DNA of 64,000 nucleotides from Candidatus Babelota bacterium (lineage in GTDB: Bacteria; Babelota; Babeliae; Babelales; Vermiphilaceae), in NCBI GenBank assembly GCA_049325595.1, contig JBMOLF010000015.1, forward strand, positions 32,001 through 96,000, given 5' to 3'. A program made the translations under genes and the position numbers. Below, in pieces: positions 15,012 to 21,550 of the stretch (position 1 is its first letter; each line of letters opens with the position of its first letter). Under the pieces are notes generated by a model. That model was given only the letters and a program-made list of their open reading frames with translations, was not told the DNA's origin and made no database searches.

Positions 15012-15261
15012 AATATACCTTATGTTATTTCACTCTTATAGTTTGCCATAATATATATTCAATTAGTCAATAATATTTCAAAGGTGCATTGGAGATTTGG
15101 CTTTCGATTGCAGCTGTATTTTTATTGATAAATTCAAGTTAATTAACCCAAAAAATAATTTTTTTAAATGTAATTATTCATATATCAATTAACTTTTATT
15201 CTCTTTTAAAATTGACAATCTGAATATAATTGCTATGCTGGAAAAAGATGGAGGTTTATTT

Positions 15262-16794
15262 ATGAAACTTTTTAAATTTATTTTTAATGCACTATTTTTT
15301 TGTTCTCAAATTGCTTTGGCTGGTGAAATTCCCGCATTAAAGCAATTAGCAGCGCAACAACTTGCGTACAAATATCAAAATTCAATCTTTACCAATTCAC
15401 TGGTCGCTGAATATAATAAAAAGCTTCCTGAGGCATGTATTAATCTAATAAATAAAGAACTACAAAGCGTAAATAAATTTTCTACCCTAACTTTAAAAGA
15501 AATTGCTCAGCAGATTTCTTATTTTGGGGTGTCATATTCACCAGATGGAAAAATTATAGCTACCATACACGATAAAACTATTAACTTATTCTCAACAGAA
15601 AATGGTAAACATATAGGTGCTTTGCAGGAGCATGAGCAGACGATTACTGATACTATTTTTATGGATGATTATACCCTCATTTCAGCTTCAATAGATAAAA
15701 CTCTAAAGATGTGGGATTTAAAAAAACATATATTAATAACCTCTTTTCAAACACAAGCCGAAGTGAAATCTATAAAACTATCTGGTGATAAGCATTATTT
15801 ATATGCTTTTTTGGAGAATGGTGTAATTGAAGTATGGAGCTTAAAATCGCATGAGTTATATCACACGATTAATGCGCAGTTTGATGGAAGTGATTTATTT
15901 TACTCAAAGCGTTTTAACAAAGCTAAAACGAAAGTGGTATTTATTCAGCCAGATAATAGCTTAATTATTGTTGATTTATTACAAGCAACTATAACTAAAA
16001 CAACTCAAATACATGAATTAAATATTCTTGATATTGCAATAACTGAAAATACTCCAATTGAATATATTATTACCGCATCTTCAGATCATAGGATAAAAAT
16101 CTGTGACATGCATACTGCGAAAGTAATTAGAACCTTGGAAGATAACAATATAACAAACGATAACGGAGAGATTCTGGGTGAAAGCCATGCAGGAGCAGTA
16201 TATGCTGTTATAGTTAATAAAAATGAAATTATTTCAGCTTCGCAAGATGGTACCATAAAAAGTTGGGATATTTTTACGGGAGAATGCCTGAAAGCATGGC
16301 ATGCACATGCTCAACCGATATTTAATCTTTATCTTTTTAACAACGGCAAAAATTTAATTTCTTGCTCACAATCAGGTGAAATTAAAATGTGGGATGTTTT
16401 GAATAGCAAATGCCAAAGAACTATACAAGCCCATGCAAGTTCAATACATTATCTTAAATTTTTAGACAAAAATAGTATAGCAACCGCATCGTTAACAGAT
16501 GGCACTCTTAAAGTATGGGATCTTTTTCATGGAAGTTGTCTTTTCTGTAAATTTATTACCAATAAAAAGCATGCTATTACTGATGTTTACCAAACTAAAT
16601 TAAAGCTTTCACCCAATAAGGGGGGATTGCTCGTTATAGATAATGGCATAATGCAGATCATGCAGTCGGAAAAAGTTACCATAACATCAAATAAAAAATC
16701 ATTATTAAATATGCTAGCTCTTTTAATTCCGAGCGGCATGATTTTCGCTGGTGCAGTGGGAGCAATGTCTATAGCCTTGTCCCATTATCGGTGA
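15262..16794 (+). CDS. Secreted WD40-repeat protein with N-terminal BC-box/SOCS-box-like motif
   Basis: Start MKLFK follows GGAGG; repeats LISASIDKTLKMWD, ISASQDGTIKSWD, ISCSQSGEIKMWD; PALKQLAAQQL..LPEACI just after the signal peptide. Confidence 0.88.
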   Translation: MKLFKFIFNALFFCSQIALAGEIPALKQLAAQQLAYKYQNSIFTNSLVAEYNKKLPEACINLINKELQSVNKFSTLTLKEIAQQISYFGVSYSPDGKIIATIHDKTINLFSTENGKHIGALQEHEQTITDTIFMDDYTLISASIDKTLKMWDLKKHILITSFQTQAEVKSIKLSGDKHYLYAFLENGVIEVWSLKSHELYHTINAQFDGSDLFYSKRFNKAKTKVVFIQPDNSLIIVDLLQATITKTTQIHELNILDIAITENTPIEYIITASSDHRIKICDMHTAKVIRTLEDNNITNDNGEILGESHAGAVYAVIVNKNEIISASQDGTIKSWDIFTGECLKAWHAHAQPIFNLYLFNNGKNLISCSQSGEIKMWDVLNSKCQRTIQAHASSIHYLKFLDKNSIATASLTDGTLKVWDLFHGSCLFCKFITNKKHAITDVYQTKLKLSPNKGGLLVIDNGIMQIMQSEKVTITSNKKSLLNMLALLIPSGMIFAGAVGAMSIALSHYR

Positions 16795-17653
16795 TAGATA
16801 AATTTCGATTAGGTAGGAGGAGCTCTACCAGCGCAGAATATCCATGAGATAATGCGTATTCTTCAAGTCCTTGGCTATTTGCACCTGCATCTAATAGTAA
16901 TTTTGTTAATTCAAAATTATTATTGCGAATAGTTTTAATAAGCAAGGCAGGGCCTTTTAAACCATCAACTTCTATAAGTGCACCATGCGCGACCAGAATT
17001 CTGTAAAGATCGGTATTATTTGTCTCAATACAAGCTTCTAAAGGGCTTAAATTAAAAAATACCCCATTTAAATTAATATTTTTGTTAAGCAATTCTGCGA
17101 TTATTTCGCTATTGTTATGTTTTATAGCAATAATTATAAGAGGCGATAACTGGTGCCAATTTCCTTGGTAAGCAGTAAGCAATCTTTTAGTGAATGCATT
17201 ATTTTTAACTTCCAGTGAAGCATTAAACAGTTGAATACCCTGAGAAGTTTCAAAATTTATTAACGTATGAGGTAAAAGTAGTTCTGCTAAGTTTAATTTT
17301 TTTTGATTGAGTGCCATTTCCAATGGATGATTGCCGGATAAATCGGAAGTGGTCGGGCTGCTTTTTGCCAGCAATTCTGCTGCTACTGAAATCATGGATA
17401 TTTCATTATTTTCTTTAGCCGCAAGTAGATAGGTCAATGGCGTATAAGTTTTTTTAAATAGAGTTTTTGTGGCAGGTACATAACGATGGGTATAAATATA
17501 TTGATTTACTGGAAATCCATTATCTAATGCATAAGCAACTTGCTTGGCATACGCATTTTCTAGGCCTTGAATAAATGATTGTTCAAGGTGTACTAATTCT
17601 GATGCATGCGTGTAAAAACTGATTAAAATGAGAAATAAATAGGTGTTTTTCAT
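16769..17653 (-). CDS. Secreted ankyrin-repeat protein
   Basis: TPLTYL, GNHPLEMA, SPLEAC and LLLDAGAN motifs; signal peptide. Confidence 0.85.
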   Translation of the reverse strand: MKNTYLFLILISFYTHASELVHLEQSFIQGLENAYAKQVAYALDNGFPVNQYIYTHRYVPATKTLFKKTYTPLTYLLAAKENNEISMISVAAELLAKSSPTTSDLSGNHPLEMALNQKKLNLAELLLPHTLINFETSQGIQLFNASLEVKNNAFTKRLLTAYQGNWHQLSPLIIIAIKHNNSEIIAELLNKNINLNGVFFNLSPLEACIETNNTDLYRILVAHGALIEVDGLKGPALLIKTIRNNNFELTKLLLDAGANSQGLEEYALSHGYSALVELLLPNRNLSITDNGTRL

Positions 17654-17697
17654 GGGAGGTTGTTTTGATTATTCGAGTTCTAGTAATTCAATAATTT

Positions 17698-18411
17698 TTA
17701 GAAGTTATGATCCATTCGATCGTTAGAAAAATCAGACGCTTTTTTAATATCCAAATTAGTTATTACATTACACAGATAGTTAAGATTAGCTGGAGCATGT
17801 CTTTCTTTTAATAGATTGATAACGGTATTAAAACGGCCATTTTTATTATTTTTACTTGCCATATCTAAGTAGTTATAAGTGAGTTTATCATTGTCAGAAA
17901 GATCAGGACTTTTTTCTATGATCTTTTGTGCCAATGAAGCATTCTCATTTTCTATTGCCCAGGCTAATGGTGAACCAAGCCGGCTAGGTTGATCGATAAT
18001 AGCACCTTTATCAATAAGATAATGAGCAACTTCACTCTTATCACCCATGGCAGCACTTAATAACGGGTAATACCCATCTATAGATAGATTGATATCTGCG
18101 CCATGAGAAGCTAAAATCTTCACAGCTTCTAAATTTCCTTTTTCTGCAGCGTAGATTAACGGAGTTGCATTAAAATCAATTTCTTGATTTAAGAAGTTAC
18201 TGTTTGTTTGTATAGTTTCTGATAGTTGGTGCAGGTTATTATTTTTTAAACTTACTAATAAAAGATTATTAATTGTTTTTGGTTTTTTATTTGCTACGAA
18301 AGATTCTTCAGCTGATTCAGCTTTACGTTTTTTAGTTATTGTTGTCTCTGCTGAAAATAGTGATTGAGTACAAAGTAATGCTAAAGCTGTTAAGAAAGTT
18401 GGTTTATTCAT
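17698..18411 (-). CDS. Secreted ankyrin-repeat protein with bipartite NLS-like motif
   Basis: TPLIYAAEKGNLEAVKILASHGADIN; KKRK-x11-KKPK after the signal peptide. Confidence 0.88.
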   Translation of the reverse strand: MNKPTFLTALALLCTQSLFSAETTITKKRKAESAEESFVANKKPKTINNLLLVSLKNNNLHQLSETIQTNSNFLNQEIDFNATPLIYAAEKGNLEAVKILASHGADINLSIDGYYPLLSAAMGDKSEVAHYLIDKGAIIDQPSRLGSPLAWAIENENASLAQKIIEKSPDLSDNDKLTYNYLDMASKNNKNGRFNTVINLLKERHAPANLNYLCNVITNLDIKKASDFSNDRMDHNF

Positions 18412-18582
18412 TATTTTACCATAAATATTAAAAGAATTAATGCACTTTTCTATTTTTTTGAAAAGTAAGACGTCGAGTGGTTAATGTATTAATTGTAGTA
18501 ATTTGCCAATATTAATCAAACAATAATTCTATTTACATTATTCAATCCAGAGACAACAATAATAAAATGATTTTTTTTCTAA

Positions 18583-19578
18583 TTATTCGAGCTCTAAAAG
18601 TTCAACTTGTTTAGCGCGCATTATCTGCTTTACTTTGTATTTTTTATGAATGATTTGTTCGACTTGATCGGGGTTAAATCGACCCCACAATAGGAAATTT
18701 CTTATTTCCTGAGGGTTAAAAGTTGTATCTATGGTTTCTTCTTTTAAGTTGGCTATTTCATTTAATAAAATATAAGCCATTTCATCATTACCATTACCTT
18801 CTGTGTCAGCTAAAAAATTTTCAGACAAGGTAACTTGCTTTTTTGTTATAAACTGCTTTGCTAAATGGTTGTTGCAATGTCTTAATGCGGCTGAAAATGG
18901 TGTGATAGTTCCTTTTTGTTTGGGCTTAAAATCTATTATTGCCCCTTTTTTGATTAACACCTGTATGATGTCGTCATGCGAATGATTTTTATTAGCGCAA
19001 ATAGCTTGTGTAAGTAATGATGATTCGTATACCGGATGATCAATATTTACTTCTGCTCCAAGTTCTAGAAGTTTTTGGGCAAGTGCAATTTGTTTGTTAC
19101 TTATTGCAAAAAGCAATGGTGTACCAAATCTATCGGCTAAATTTACGTCAGCTCCATTTTCAAGCAAGAATAATGCCACGGGCTCACTATTAATGTGTTT
19201 TTTTATACTTTGAATTAATGGTGTTTGGCTCCATCCATTTTTCTCATTTACGCTAGCGCCCTTGTCTATTAATTCTTTAACGATATCAAGACGAAGCTTA
19301 TGGGCAGCAATGGTTAAGGGCGTGGTCTTATTCTCAAGTGCTAGATTAGGGTTAGCACCCAGCTCCAAAGCCTTTTTTATGAGGTTAAAGCCATCGTCTT
19401 GGCTTAACCCTTCACATAGCATCTTTTGTGCATCATCTAAGGGGGTCATTATTTTTTGTTTTTTAGTTTGAGGCGCTTCATCACTTTGTTCTGCAAGTCT
19501 TTTGTAGGGTGGCAAAGAGGCAAAAGAATTTTGATAAAAACAGAGTGCCAATAAAATAAGAACATGATGGGAAATCAC
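18583..19578 (-). CDS. Secreted ankyrin-repeat protein with bipartite NLS-like motif
   Basis: TPLTIAA, TPLIQS, TPLLFA, LLENGADVN; KR-x11-KKQK; GTG start with GGAG SD. Confidence 0.88.
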   Translation of the reverse strand: MISHHVLILLALCFYQNSFASLPPYKRLAEQSDEAPQTKKQKIMTPLDDAQKMLCEGLSQDDGFNLIKKALELGANPNLALENKTTPLTIAAHKLRLDIVKELIDKGASVNEKNGWSQTPLIQSIKKHINSEPVALFLLENGADVNLADRFGTPLLFAISNKQIALAQKLLELGAEVNIDHPVYESSLLTQAICANKNHSHDDIIQVLIKKGAIIDFKPKQKGTITPFSAALRHCNNHLAKQFITKKQVTLSENFLADTEGNGNDEMAYILLNEIANLKEETIDTTFNPQEIRNFLLWGRFNPDQVEQIIHKKYKVKQIMRAKQVELLELE

Positions 19579-19596
19579 TTGATTTACTCCTGCACT

Positions 19597-20367
19597 TTAC
19601 TCAATTTCTAATAATTCAACTTGTTTGGCGCGAGCCATTTGTTTTATTTTGTACGCGTCAAAAATTTTTTTCTCAACAACCCAGGAAGGGATAAAATTTC
19701 CAACTGCTTGTCGTAGCTGGTCAGGATTGTATGTAGCATTAATGGGGGATCTGAGGTGTTTTAGTTCATGTAATATTATCAAAGCCATTTCTTGATTGCC
19801 CGATTGAAAAGCAGCAAAAAGCGTACGCTCGGAAAGAGGTATGCCATAGTGGCCTATCAATCTTTTTGCTAGCGTATTGTTGTGCTGATTTATTGCTGCT
19901 TCAAAGGGATTGAGCGGCAATGCGCCACGTTCTATAAGGCTATCGTAAGCGATAGTTGCACCGTTATCGATAAGCAGATTTATAATCTCATCATGTGAAT
20001 TATCATCATTACATTGAATTGCCAGTGCAAGAATAGAAAATTCGTTATCTTTTTGTTTAAGATAAATTCCCTTTTCGATCAAACGTTTAGCTACATCAAA
20101 TTGATCCGTTTTAATAGCTTCTATCAAATCGGCCACATCATTGTTAATGTAGGTCCTGCTGTGTGTAGGTAGCATGGTATCAAATAGATTTTCTGCAAAC
20201 GAGGTGAATTTTAAGTCTTGATCACCGGCTGTTTTATATTTTTTGGTGGGTGCGTTATTCAGATCATCATGTGAAGCTCTTTTTTTACCATGGGGTAATT
20301 CTGAGCACAAAGATGATGATAGTATTACCAAGCTAAGTAGCAATGCATAGTTTATAATTTTTTTCAT
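19597..20367 (-). CDS. Secreted ankyrin-repeat protein with bipartite NLS-like motif
   Basis: C-terminal half is homologous to 18583-19578 (SHDEII.LLI..GA, RAKQVELLEIE); KKR-x11-KKYK. Confidence 0.82.
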   Translation of the reverse strand: MKKIINYALLLSLVILSSSLCSELPHGKKRASHDDLNNAPTKKYKTAGDQDLKFTSFAENLFDTMLPTHSRTYINNDVADLIEAIKTDQFDVAKRLIEKGIYLKQKDNEFSILALAIQCNDDNSHDEIINLLIDNGATIAYDSLIERGALPLNPFEAAINQHNNTLAKRLIGHYGIPLSERTLFAAFQSGNQEMALIILHELKHLRSPINATYNPDQLRQAVGNFIPSWVVEKKIFDAYKIKQMARAKQVELLEIE

Positions 20368-20455
20368 GGGTGTAAGCGTGATGAGAGTAGTGGGAGGCCG
20401 CTTTAACTATTTGTGTAGCAATGCAAAGGGCAGCTGTTGCTGCCCCTCTTATAAT

Positions 20456-21070
20456 TTAGAACGGAAGATCATCTACAAATGGTGGCTCGTCATTGAAATT
20501 AAGCTCACCCGTGTCAGATGCATCAGGAATATTTTCAAGCAATTTTGCTTTTTTCTTTACTTTAGCAGGTTCAACTTTTACCTCATCAAATGAAAATGAA
20601 GAAGTTGTTGCTGGCTTTGCTTGATTGCGATTTTTAATTTGATTGATTTGATTAAACAATTCTTTTTCAGCTGGATTATTTAAATCAAGACCAGTATTTG
20701 AAGATTCATTTTTTTCTGAATTATCTTCAGATTGTGCGCCATACGACAAGAACATTACGCGGTCAGCAACAATTGAGTGTTTGCTTCGTTTTTGACCTGA
20801 TGCTGAATCTTCCCAGCTATCAAATTTTAAGCGGCCTTCGATAAGCACCGGGCGACCTTTTTGTAAATATTGGCGACAACTTTCTGCTTGAGGTCCCCAA
20901 ACATCGATATCGATATAGCATACTTCTTGTATCATATCGCCATTTTGTTTGTTTTTAAATTGTCGGTTTGATGCAATACCCAAACGGCATACTGCTTGTC
21001 CTGAAGAAAGTTGTTTATATTCAGGATCGCGGGTTAAATTACCCATGATGATTACACGATTAAAACTCAT
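20456..21070 (-). CDS. ssb: Single-stranded DNA-binding protein
   Basis: NRVIIMGNLTRDPE; C-terminal DDLPF. Confidence 0.96.
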   Translation of the reverse strand: MSFNRVIIMGNLTRDPEYKQLSSGQAVCRLGIASNRQFKNKQNGDMIQEVCYIDIDVWGPQAESCRQYLQKGRPVLIEGRLKFDSWEDSASGQKRSKHSIVADRVMFLSYGAQSEDNSEKNESSNTGLDLNNPAEKELFNQINQIKNRNQAKPATTSSFSFDEVKVEPAKVKKKAKLLENIPDASDTGELNFNDEPPFVDDLPF

Positions 21071-21154
21071 GTGTGTCCTTTAGAAAATTTAAGTAAAGTA
21101 TTACTCATGGTAGCAAAAAAATAAGTTTACTCAAACACTCAAAAACAAATAGGA

Positions 21155-21550
21155 TTACTTATTTTTTTTAGATGTTGATTCTAATGAAGAACGATTTTCA
21201 TGAATAAAGCTGCAGACTGCATCAAGTTCATTATGCAATTGTGTAAGGGCATGATTAAGTTGATCAATTTTTGCATGCCATTCACCAAGCGTTTCTTTAG
21301 AAGCGTTGTGTAATATACCTTTTTTATTATTTTGAACGAGGTCATCAACTTCGTTAATACAAAATTCTTGTATATGGGCTATTTTTTTTATCGTTGGCGC
21401 AGAATAGTGCAAAAAATCTGCGCAATCATTACCAGCTTGTTCTTTAAGTTTTTGCTGCGATACTTTCGGTGTCTTTTTTATAATAAAATTTTCAGCTAAT
21501 ACACCAGTTCCTAAAAAAATACTGGTTATTATAAGTAATTTAACTTTCAT
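21155..21550 (-). CDS. Hypothetical secreted helical protein
   Basis: 131 aa ORF; signal peptide; GAGG SD. Confidence 0.55.
   Translation of the reverse strand: MKVKLLIITSIFLGTGVLAENFIIKKTPKVSQQKLKEQAGNDCADFLHYSAPTIKKIAHIQEFCINEVDDLVQNNKKGILHNASKETLGEWHAKIDQLNHALTQLHNELDAVCSFIHENRSSLESTSKKNK

Follow-up and report, generated by a model that had tools for sequence, protein, structure and literature searches.

Candidate Bipartite Nuclear Localization Signals Behind Predicted Signal Peptides of Ankyrin Proteins in a Dependentiae Bacterium

Introduction

Why do three neighbouring ankyrin-repeat proteins of a Dependentiae bacterium carry, directly behind their predicted signal peptides (SPs), two clusters of basic residues that look like a bipartite nuclear localization signal (NLS)? 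Dependentiae are widespread and barely studied parasites of protists, and many of their ankyrin proteins with an SP have been termed effectors without a known destination. Related Dependentiae are described to replicate in protist cells (PMC4378268, PMC6561590, PMC8812299), whereby host mitochondria wrap the cells of related strains (PMC6561590, PMC8812299). The bacterium studied here is related to strain Noda2021, whose host is Vermamoeba (PMC8812299).

The genes are located in a window of 64,000 nucleotides from genome G000 (1.29 Mb, 95% complete). For comparison, we used the complete genomes G001 (same genus as G000) and G010 (other genus) as well as a 273-kb sample of G017 (another family). 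Motif scans were confined to G000, G001, G010, and part of G017. SPs were called by our own rule on hydrophobicity and the residues at -3/-1, applied to a crude set of open reading frames (ORFs).

Three Ankyrin Genes Share a Basic Motif Behind an SP-Like N-Terminus

The row comprises four ankyrin genes with the following features:

16769..17653, reverse strand: the fourth ankyrin gene, which has an SP-like N-terminus without the basic motif and serves as internal contrast
17698..18411, reverse strand: gene A, ankyrin protein of 237 aa, with the bipartite motif behind an SP-like N-terminus
18277..18333, reverse strand: NLS-like motif of gene A, KKRK-x11-KKPK, residues 27-45 (from sequence)
18349..18411, reverse strand: SP-like segment of gene A, residues 1-21 (from sequence and the heuristic SP rule)
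18583..19578, reverse strand: gene B, 331-aa ankyrin protein, GTG start, with SP-like N-terminus, bipartite motif, and conserved C-terminal helix
19453..19503, reverse strand: NLS-like motif of gene B, KR-x11-KKQK, residues 26-42 (from sequence)
19597..20367, reverse strand: gene C, ankyrin protein of 256 aa, likewise with the bipartite motif behind an SP-like N-terminus
20233..20286, reverse strand: NLS-like motif of gene C, KKR-x11-KKYK, residues 28-45 (from sequence)

In the product of gene A, the hydrophobic residues 1-21 are followed by ETTIT and then by KKRK(27-30)-AESAEESFVAN-KKPK(42-45). The SP-like N-terminus of gene B is followed by SLPPY and KR(26-27)-LAEQSDEAPQT-KKQK(39-42), and that of gene C by ELPHG and KKR(28-30)-ASHDDLNNAPT-KKYK(42-45), so that the motif starts 5-6 residues past the signal-like segment in all three proteins. 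Re-reading of the ORFs thus confirmed the original prediction of an SP-like start with two basic clusters and 11-residue linkers in 3/3 genes. It likewise confirmed that the fourth ankyrin gene, which has an SP-like N-terminus, lacks the basic motif. The net charge of the first 18 predicted mature residues is 0, -1, and 0 for A, B, and C, respectively.

All three products exceed the Pfam cut-off of 27.3 bits for Ank_2, with 58.9 bits for A (E-value 7.8e-16, residues 56-140), 67.3 bits for B (1.8e-18), and 30.8 bits for C (4.5e-7); the fourth gene is also above the cut-off for this domain. The C-terminal half of gene C (residues 81-256) is a paralogue of gene B with 40% identity in BLAST. Promoter and terminator sites within 16500-21300 were not above the level of shuffled sequence. 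Gene C was also considered as a lipoprotein because of the residues LCS in front of its cleavage site, but this reading was rejected by eye, as these residues do not fit the lipobox consensus.

The Motif Is More Frequent Than Expected in the Genome and in Its Relatives

The original prediction would have been refuted if the motif were no commoner than expected in a Lys-rich proteome. We defined the strict motif as [KR][KR]-x10-12-KKx[KR] within residues 19-78 and used shuffled sequences that keep the local composition as reference. In G000, 12 of 1304 ORF products carry the strict motif against a mean of 1.88 in the shuffles, and none of 300 shuffles reached 12. Interior control segments had the motif in 0/1001 and 1/766 cases, with 1.35 and 1.27 expected. 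Hence, the Lys-rich proteome does not account for the motif. The genome-wide count of the combined signal and NLS architecture, which had been proposed together with the prediction, gave a similar picture: when we scanned for a bipartite match within the first 45 mature residues after a heuristic SP, 9/640 proteins of G000 were found vs. 1.45 expected (0/200 shuffles reach 9), and 3/687 among ORFs without a signal-like N-terminus. Some pattern matches are plainly due to chance, namely ribosomal protein S10 in every genome and a secretin in G000.

The excess depends on the spacer. In G000 it is found at 11 residues (7 proteins), 12 (8), and weakly 10 (2), whereas spacers of 3-9 and 13-21 gave 0-3 proteins each, with shuffle means of 0.6-1.0. 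Pooling the three complete genomes yielded 7 proteins with a spacer of 10 residues, 11 with a spacer of 11, and 12 with a spacer of 12, compared to 1-6 proteins for each of the remaining spacers from 4 to 20 (shuffle means 1.5-3.0). The excess is therefore restricted to the 10-12 residues typical of bipartite NLSs, as predicted, both in G000 and in the pooled genomes.

Bipartite matches behind an SP-like N-terminus are also enriched in G001 (7/630 vs. 1.58) and G010 (8/552 vs. 2.08), with 0/200 shuffles reaching the observed number in either genome; without such an N-terminus, 4/653 and 2/608 ORFs match. The 273 kb sampled from G017 contain one match vs. 0.38 expected. For the strict motif, the excess in the two relatives is modest (6 vs. 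2.1 and 6 vs. 2.5, reached by 5/200 and 4/200 shuffles), which is a point against a role in nuclear import.

The Motif Occurs on Unrelated Proteins

Among the 29 Ank_2-bearing ORFs of G000, 27 look exported by the heuristic SP rule, but the motif is carried by three only, namely the window genes A, B, and C. This favours a destination tag over an export signal. The carriers comprise ankyrin, ankyrin-like, and orphan proteins, mutually unrelated by BLAST or Pfam, whereby Pfam gave no match for 10 of 15 carrier proteins. Two orthologous pairs link the carriers of G000 to those of G001, and for the G010 carriers there is no BLAST counterpart among those of G000. Since BLAST shows no relationship among the tagged proteins, and since their 5' ends lack DNA homology, the term “family” used in the original prediction had to be dropped. 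A recently duplicated leader module was rejected as well, as over their first 135 nt, four carrier genes showed no better alignment than unrelated AT-rich DNA. Across 16 leaders (174 linker residues), acidic residues make up 18% of the linkers and basic ones 7%. Overall, at least three genera of the family have the tag on a minority of their presumed exported proteins, in each case a few residues from the predicted cleavage site, and it is therefore read as a destination label rather than a general signal for export.

For the orphan carrier on contig C1, a search of the ESM Atlas ended without a usable lead (best score 0.79), and for a 390-aa protein encoded just upstream of the window it yielded an ankyrin-like lead of 0.87, under the bar of 0.9.

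The Basic Residues Are Conserved in a Predicted Unstructured Segment

Gene A has no orthologue above 30% identity among 20 related genomes, and its counterpart is absent at the syntenic place in Noda2021 (L158, between the 331-aa and 279-aa genes). A library of 1.84 billion proteins yielded the orthologue P0105, 149 of the 150 matches listed being long (989-5314 aa) ankyrin-repeat proteins. P0105 shares 64% identity with gene A and keeps KKRK-x11-KKQK, with 7/7 basic residues and 5/11 linker residues identical. Gene B orthologues show 55-72% identity; K26, R27, K39, K40, and K42 are invariant and the spacer is 11 residues in 4/4 aligned orthologues, whereas 3/11 linker columns are invariant. 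The gene C orthologue P0095 (88% identity) has 6/6 basic and 9/11 linker residues identical. Taken together, basic positions are identical in 28/28 cases vs. 34/55 for linker positions (Fisher p=3.9e-5, the pairs not being independent). This agrees with the prediction that the basic residues stay conserved while the linker drifts. An orphan carrier behaves likewise in that KR-x10-KKxK is kept in its 38%-identical homologue. The fourth gene has a 34%-identical counterpart at the corresponding syntenic position of the genome from the same genus.

An AF2 model of gene B, based on an alignment of only four sequences, places a helix at residues 4-17, ankyrin helices at 50-275, and a further helix at 303-330. 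A pLDDT<50 is recorded for residues 10-47 and for 18-49, and residues 18-27 and 32-49 lack secondary structure. According to this model, the motif is part of an unstructured tail that connects the signal helix to the ankyrin repeats, in line with the prediction of an unstructured segment.

Possible Export Route

A Sec-type SP has a short n-region, a hydrophobic core of 10-15 residues, and small residues at -3/-1. By the heuristic rule, the products of genes A, B, and C have putative SPs, and the gene B model shows a separate N-terminal helix at residues 4-17. A signal peptidase I is encoded in G000 (Peptidase_S26 above cut-off, G000:C1:92612-93436), along with two secretins, two T2SSE ATPases, and two T2SSF platform proteins, which could equally be parts of a type IV pilus. 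Searches of this 95% complete genome for markers of type III secretion and for the type IV markers VirB4 (PF03135) and VirD4 (PF02534) gave no match. For the SP ankyrin proteins of Babela massiliensis, a type II system has been proposed as the route (PMC4378268). The original prediction had assumed an unknown second export step; such an extra step is still part of our reading, but with the type II-like secretins, ATPases, and platform proteins it now has an obvious candidate.

A Proposed Path to the Host Nucleus and Its Alternatives

From the sequence data, we lean towards the reading that the three proteins are small effectors of an obligately intracellular parasite of amoebae, exported by Sec and a type II-like system, which would enter the amoeba nucleus via importin-alpha. 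The data themselves show the motif, its excess, spacing, and conservation, its context of predicted disorder, and the presence of export genes. Removal of the SP, escape from the bacterium into the host, binding to importin, accumulation in the nucleus, and any role there are inferred. The SP would route the protein through Sec and be cut off by signal peptidase I, and the folded protein would leave the periplasm by type II-like secretin machinery or outer-membrane vesicles and reach the amoeba cytoplasm. Its new N-terminus would then be an unstructured tail with a classical bipartite NLS, whereby, on host importin-alpha, the KR pair would occupy the minor site and the K-K-x-K cluster would bind to the major one. 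Importin-alpha/beta would carry the protein into the host nucleus, where the ankyrin repeats might bind a host nuclear protein.

Several points speak against nuclear import. Positive charge near the cleavage site can hinder Sec export (the “export initiation” region of E. coli), and in the predicted mature proteins the first basic residues are located at about +6, so that export might be impeded. Babela is described to grow in a vacuole (PMC4378268), and in such a case a further membrane may separate the bacterium from importin. The predicted mature proteins have about 24-35 kDa, so that they could also enter the nucleus by diffusion.

It might also be that the bacterium itself uses the basic-acidic-basic leader for sorting, either as a recognition or loading signal for the type II-like route or vesicles or as a hold on the anionic cell surface, and that its likeness to an NLS is coincidental. 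In the clearest cases the motif lies about 0-9 residues from the predicted cleavage site, as would fit a signal read by an export machine, and with no type III or IV markers found, type II-like export must handle effectors. However, type II secretion is not known to use a linear signal of such kind, the tag is not required for export in general given 3/29 tagged vs. 27/29 SP-like ankyrin ORFs, and two clusters with a 10-12 spacer fit the importin-alpha rule in detail. We therefore regard own sorting as unlikely.

Less likely still, the tag could work inside the host without importin, as a polybasic patch for acidic lipids, nucleic acid, or an organelle such as the mitochondrion, or as a dibasic site for a host protease. 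The wrapping of related strains by host mitochondria would suit an organelle target, and KR pairs are protease sites too. The acidic linkers, however, do not resemble mitochondrial presequences, and neither a lipid patch nor a cleavage site demands a spacer of 10-12 residues.

To a motif without function, which would result from descent among fast-evolving paralogues plus chance matches from basic clustering in disordered N-terminal tails, we give little credence. The paralogy of genes B and C, the two orthologous carrier pairs common to G000 and G001, and the chance matches (S10, secretin) would be explained in this way. On the other hand, most carriers have no detectable relationship, the leaders are without DNA homology, and the G010 carriers lack BLAST counterparts in G000. 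Moreover, basic clustering would lift all spacers instead of 10-12 only, and the basic positions are kept in every orthologue comparison while the linker is not. Very improbable, finally, is an uncleaved N-terminal membrane anchor with the basic cluster as topology determinant (positive-inside rule) and the ankyrin domain on the bacterial cytoplasmic side or on the inner membrane, since, in spite of basic residues about 5 residues past the hydrophobic segment, each proposed cleavage site is preceded by small residues at -1 and -3, the charge is balanced by the acidic linker, a topology signal requires neither a second cluster nor a fixed spacing, and SP-ankyrin proteins are the rule in the phylum and are read as secreted (PMC4378268, PMC6561590).

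Returning to nuclear import via importin-alpha, a broader form of it is conceivable, which we put forward tentatively and consider doubtful. The arrangement of SP, about 5 residues, and bipartite NLS may be a portable address cassette of this Dependentiae family, present on many unrelated type II-exported effectors and arisen or kept repeatedly. Selection would keep it at the shortest distance from the mature N-terminus that Sec export permits, and the acidic linker would neutralize the first basic cluster. It would be a bacterial counterpart of RxLR/PEXEL leaders that specifies the host nucleus.

Novelty and Implications

The combination of SP and NLS is a known nucleomodulin design, while the recurrent position right behind the predicted SP looks new. 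In the best-ranked matches of long literature lists, with subscription journals outside the scope, Dependentiae, Babela, or Vermiphilus were not relevantly joined with NLS or nucleomodulin; in the two papers where both sets of terms co-occur, Dependentiae are named once each, in another context. In the accessible text, “nuclear” occurs 0 times in PMC4378268 and “nuclear localization signal” or “NLS” 0 times in PMC6561590.

If nuclear import holds true, a nuclear sorting tag on a minority of the SP-ankyrin proteins would be the first concrete testable handle on that part of the arsenal. It would also imply that a bacterium without type III, IV, or VI injection systems can target the nucleus by general secretion plus a eukaryotic label at the mature N-terminus. 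Should even the cassette exist, the whole nuclear effector set of a parasite from an uncultured phylum would be defined from sequence alone. A test is practicable, as Noda2021 is cultivable and has orthologues of two of the three genes (B and C).

Comparison With Known Systems

The classical bipartite NLS consists of KR, a polar/acidic linker of 10-12 residues, and K-K/R-x-K/R in an unstructured segment, and A, B, and C have the pair, the cluster, and an 11-residue linker. By the published rule, K-K/R-X-K/R is the major-site consensus and the upstream basic pair lies in the minor site; viral NLS examples given there look alike, with KR, an acidic linker, and KKK (PMC10807245). In contrast to these, the putative NLS described here is bacterial and directly follows a predicted Sec-type SP.

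Within the phylum, the ankyrin effectors of Babela massiliensis and Chromulinavorax destructans share the design of SP and ankyrin repeats. An SP is reported for 79 of the 126 ankyrin proteins of Babela and for 78% of the 98 known from Chromulinavorax, and Dependentiae proteins of this type have been proposed to be secreted into the host by a type II or Sec route (PMC4378268, PMC6561590). Anaplasma AnkA and Orientia Ank1/Ank6/Ank13 are likewise bacterial ankyrin-repeat effectors, for which arrival in the host nucleus is described (PMC9204287, PMC8406279, PMC7819608). As described, they differ in being type IV- or type I-secreted, lacking an SP, and being much larger or having F-box/PRANC tails, and their import relies on importin-beta/RanGTP or the ankyrin-based RaDAR pathway and not on a classical bipartite NLS. 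The parallel to AnkA drawn in the original prediction is thus valid for a nuclear ankyrin effector as such, but AnkA, being type IV-injected and using importin-beta/RanGTP, is a loose analogue (PMC9204287).

Screening with SignalP and cNLS Mapper is described as an established route to nucleomodulins, and the mycobacterial MgdE/Rv1075c also combines a general export signal and an NLS on one protein (PMC13038263). MgdE differs in having a Tat signal, a GDSL hydrolase domain, and, within the protein, two short NLSs of the monopartite type (PMC13038263). The present proteins instead have a Sec-like signal, one bipartite NLS-like motif at the predicted mature N-terminus, and ankyrin repeats, with the tag occurring on unrelated proteins.

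A short address motif at a fixed short distance behind a cleaved SP, on unrelated effectors, is also a feature of oomycete RxLR and Plasmodium PEXEL proteins. Those motifs, however, serve translocation into the host cell and belong to eukaryotic secretory pathways, whereas the motif described here would act after release, for nuclear import.

A Bipartite NLS-Like Motif Follows the Signal-Like N-Termini of Three Ankyrin Proteins

The window holds a row of four ankyrin genes, flanked by ssb (20456-21070) on one side and by a convergent WD40 gene (15235-16794) on the other:

19597-20367, minus strand: gene C, 256 aa, motif KKR-ASHDDLNNAPT-KKYK
18583-19578, minus strand: gene B, 331 aa, GTG start, motif KR-LAEQSDEAPQT-KKQK
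17698-18411, minus strand: gene A, 237 aa, motif KKRK-AESAEESFVAN-KKPK
16769-17653, minus strand: fourth ankyrin gene, 294 aa, without motif

Ankyrin repeats above the Pfam cut-off and a signal-peptide-like hydrophobic N-terminus were found in 4 of 4 gene products. In genes A, B, and C, a basic-acidic-basic motif lies 5–6 residues past the likely cleavage site, and the linker between the two basic clusters comprises 11 residues each time. The ORF translations agree in every detail with the original prediction, which had described these motifs and 11-aa linkers behind the signal-like starts of three ankyrin genes and their absence from the fourth. The WD40 gene, located on the plus strand and at the same position in the named relative, encodes a 519-aa beta-propeller protein that starts with a signal-like stretch and has a hydrophobic segment near its C-terminus.

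The genome holding the window (G000, with the window at C15:32001-96000) comprises 1.29 Mb in 24 contigs with ~35% G+C and is 95% complete. Among named sources, genes B and C have their closest homologues in "Candidatus Dependentiae bacterium Noda2021" (hypothetical proteins; 71% and 88% identity, respectively), whose record AP025250.1 shows the same order as the window, namely ssb, a 256-aa gene, a 331-aa gene, an ankyrin gene without motif, and a WD40 gene. Judged by these homologues and this synteny, the source organism belongs to the Dependentiae, which confirms the phylum. The proteins at 586344 and 587133 of G001, a complete genome of the same genus, are letter-identical to those of the syntenic Noda2021 locus (L158), so that both sources represent a single line of evidence. 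At the syntenic site of the same-genus genome, where the neighbours of gene A lie 3 bp apart (L158 3996-3999), the gene is missing, meaning that a tagged effector was gained or lost inside one genus. Noda2021 comes from an isolation on Vermamoeba vermiformis, and altered mitochondria encircle its cells (PMC8812299); it is on this relative that an amoeba host of the source organism would rest.

The Basic Clusters Are Conserved and Exceed Chance Expectation

In gene B, residues K26, R27, K39, K40, and K42 do not vary across 4 of 4 orthologues (55–72% identity), which all share a spacer of 11, and just 3 of the 11 linker columns are fixed. All six basic residues of gene C are kept in the 88% orthologue. 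For gene A, no homologue above 30% identity was found in 20 relatives; a 64%-identical metagenome protein (P0105) retains KKRK-x11-KKQK and shares 5 of the 11 linker residues. The second motif of an orphan on contig C1 aligned to KR-x10-KKAK in a 38%-identical homologue. Pooled over comparisons that are not independent, 28 of 28 basic positions are identical compared to 34 of 55 linker positions (Fisher p=3.9e-5).

ORFs of G000 were called crudely by our own rules (1370 non-overlapping ORFs, 91% coding, 7.6% Lys), and signal peptides by a heuristic of our own design. The strict pattern [KR][KR]-x10-12-KKx[KR] within residues 19-78 occurs in 12 of 1304 G000 proteins, compared to 1.88 expected from shuffles preserving segment composition, of which 0 of 300 reached 12; in two interior control segments the counts were 0 of 1001 and 1 of 766 (1.35 and 1.27 expected). 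Since real basic residues are more clustered than shuffled ones, a scan of spacers 3-21 with the same two clusters provided a sharper control. In G000 it yielded spacers 11 (7 proteins), 12 (8), and weakly 10 (2), with 0–3 proteins at the others. When a heuristic signal peptide was demanded and the second cluster was widened to K[KR][KR] or K[KR]x[KR] within the first 45 mature residues, 9 of 640 proteins matched (1.45 expected), compared to 3 of 687 proteins without a signal-like start. Clearly false matches are ribosomal protein S10 and a secretin. Thus, the reservation that the motif might be no more frequent than expected in a Lys-rich proteome did not hold, be it for the strict count, the restriction to spacers 10-12, or the signal-conditioned count.

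The whole-genome tests were repeated in two complete relatives, whereby all complete genomes tested belong to one family. The strict pattern gave 6 proteins in G001 (2.1 expected, reached by 5 of 200 shuffles) and 6 in G010 from another genus (2.5 expected, 4 of 200), and the signal-conditioned test gave 7 of 630 (1.58 expected) and 8 of 552 (2.08 expected), respectively, reached by 0 of 200 shuffles each. Pooled over the three genomes, spacers peak at 10, 11, and 12 (7, 11, and 12 proteins), with 1–6 proteins at the other spacers from 4 to 20 and shuffle means of 1.5–3.0. Among the G010 carriers are three with KR-x12-KKIK, KR-x10-KKHR, and KR-x11-KRLK directly behind the signal, of which two are ankyrin proteins passing the Ank_2 cut-off and one is weakly ankyrin-like and falls short of it. 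By BLAST, the G010 carriers are not counterparts of the G000 carriers, and gene C matched the protein with the most similar-looking G010 leader at E=0.057. By chance, another ankyrin protein with such a leader was found in a third genus (G002, L010), and a monopartite-looking KAKKRRL lies behind a signal in another family (G016, L008). A 273 kb sample of a genome from another family (G017) gave 1 match (0.38 expected), which speaks neither for nor against an excess there.

Two further signal-like proteins were observed in the relatives. One (G001, L017 11739-12794) has two HIT-type domains (HIT, CwfJ_C_1, and DcpS_C matches) and a weaker KK-x11-KKK motif behind the signal, and is possibly an exported nucleotide- or cap-hydrolase. 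The other (G010, L076-L137 27492-28208; 238 aa) has ALQAMKRPR as a repeating module together with KAPKRQK, which places several NLS-like clusters in series.

The Motif Behaves as a Tag Rather Than a Protein Family

Outside the window, G000 carriers comprise a 390-aa protein ~4 kb upstream (KR-x12-KKQK; Pfam-negative, with a weak ankyrin-like lead only), a 287-aa protein on C12 (KR-x11-KKIR), two adjacent orphans on C1, of which one bears a tandem pair of bipartite motifs (KR-x10-KKRK among them), and small orphans on C10 and C11. A Pfam match was obtained for 0 of 7 of these outside carriers. In BLAST among carriers, only genes B and C are related to each other (40% identity, C-terminal half), the ankyrin proteins being loosely linked, and no alignment extends into the leaders; DNA homology is likewise absent among four carrier genes compared over their first 135 nt. 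The "nucleomodulin family" of the original prediction is therefore better described as a tag. Among the 29 Ank_2 ORFs of G000, 27 look exported and only the three window genes are tagged. An export-essential signal would be expected on most of the 27, yet three carry it, so that on sequence grounds a destination label fits better than an export signal.

At L155 (G000:C1:120800-122900), two neighbouring orphan genes share a start of signal peptide followed by MDI; one has KR-x11-KKVK and KR-x10-KKRK in tandem, of which its G001 homologue retains one.

An AlphaFold2 model of gene B (4-sequence alignment, mean pLDDT 73.6) shows an N-terminal helix (4-17), an unstructured low-confidence region (18-49) holding the motif, ankyrin helices in pairs (50 to ~275), and a long C-terminal helix (303-330). 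Importin-alpha requires an exposed and extended stretch, and the modelled setting of the motif offers this. Over the first 18 predicted mature residues the net charge is 0 (A), -1 (B), and 0 (C), meaning that the first basic cluster is cancelled by the acidic linker. This matters because Sec export in E. coli can be impeded by positive charge close behind the signal peptide.

A conserved C-terminal tail (AYKIKQM-RAK...LLE-E) is shared by genes B and C and all orthologues; it lies at window 18589-18672 in gene B (residues 303-330) and at 19597-19680 in gene C, is modelled as one long helix, and has no Pfam match. Past the hydrophobic core of signal-like proteins, Met directly precedes the first charged residue in 14.5%, 13.3%, and 12.3% of the cases (G000, G001, and G010; n=592, 566, and 495), mostly as ME or MD, at an overall Met content of ~2%. 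Many predicted mature parts hence begin with Met at the signal junction; a scar left by fusion, an additional start site, or a cleavage preference particular to the lineage could each explain this.

Possible Export Route and Destination

The second export step, which had been called unknown, has a known candidate. G000 encodes signal peptidase I, two secretins, two T2SS-type ATPases, and two platform proteins, which may form a secretion system or a pilus; VirB4, VirD4, and type III FHIPEP were not found in this 95% complete genome. The 857-aa secretin at G000:C9:53060-55633 is represented at G001:1114282-1116854 by a pair of adjoining ORFs of 440 and 417 aa with a 4-base overlap, reflecting a frameshift or an assembly error in either genome. 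For the signal-peptide ankyrin proteins of Babela massiliensis, a type II system had already been put forward as the route (PMC4378268). In Chromulinavorax, whose cells lie within the host cytoplasm, 44% of CDS and 78% of 98 ankyrin proteins bear signal peptides, and late in infection the host nucleus breaks down (PMC6561590). A vacuolar membrane, as described for Babela (PMC4378268), could be an additional barrier.

We consider it on balance probable, though by a small degree, that the carriers act in the host nucleus. They would be exported by Sec with cleavage of the signal peptide and released via the secretin pathway or in vesicles. Host importin-alpha would then bind the exposed N-terminal bipartite signal, with KR at the minor and K-K-x-K at the major site (assignment and consensus as in PMC10807245), and after import into the nucleus the ankyrin repeats would bind a nuclear target. 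It is unlikely that the motif is a bacterial-side sorting or retention signal, against which stand the spacer specificity and the 3 of 29 distribution. The same two observations count against another host-side role, as polybasic patch or dibasic cleavage site, which is somewhat less likely still, and against inheritance plus chance, which is improbable. An uncleaved anchor with a topology signal is very improbable in view of the charge balance and the second cluster.

Comparison With Known Nucleomodulins

Among the top-ranked literature matches, we found neither an NLS on Dependentiae proteins nor a bipartite NLS that unrelated Sec-exported proteins repeatedly carry at their mature N-termini. 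Signal-peptide ankyrin effectors are already known from Dependentiae (PMC4378268 and PMC6561590). Combining a signal peptide with an NLS is an established layout of nucleomodulins and serves as a screening rule in mycobacteria, where MgdE was validated (PMC13038263); MgdE has a Tat signal and two internal NLSs. The ankyrin nucleomodulin AnkA of Anaplasma is type IV-injected and takes an importin-beta/RanGTP route (PMC9204287), and those of Orientia use type I secretion and are imported by RaDAR or in an unknown manner (PMC8406279; PMC7819608).
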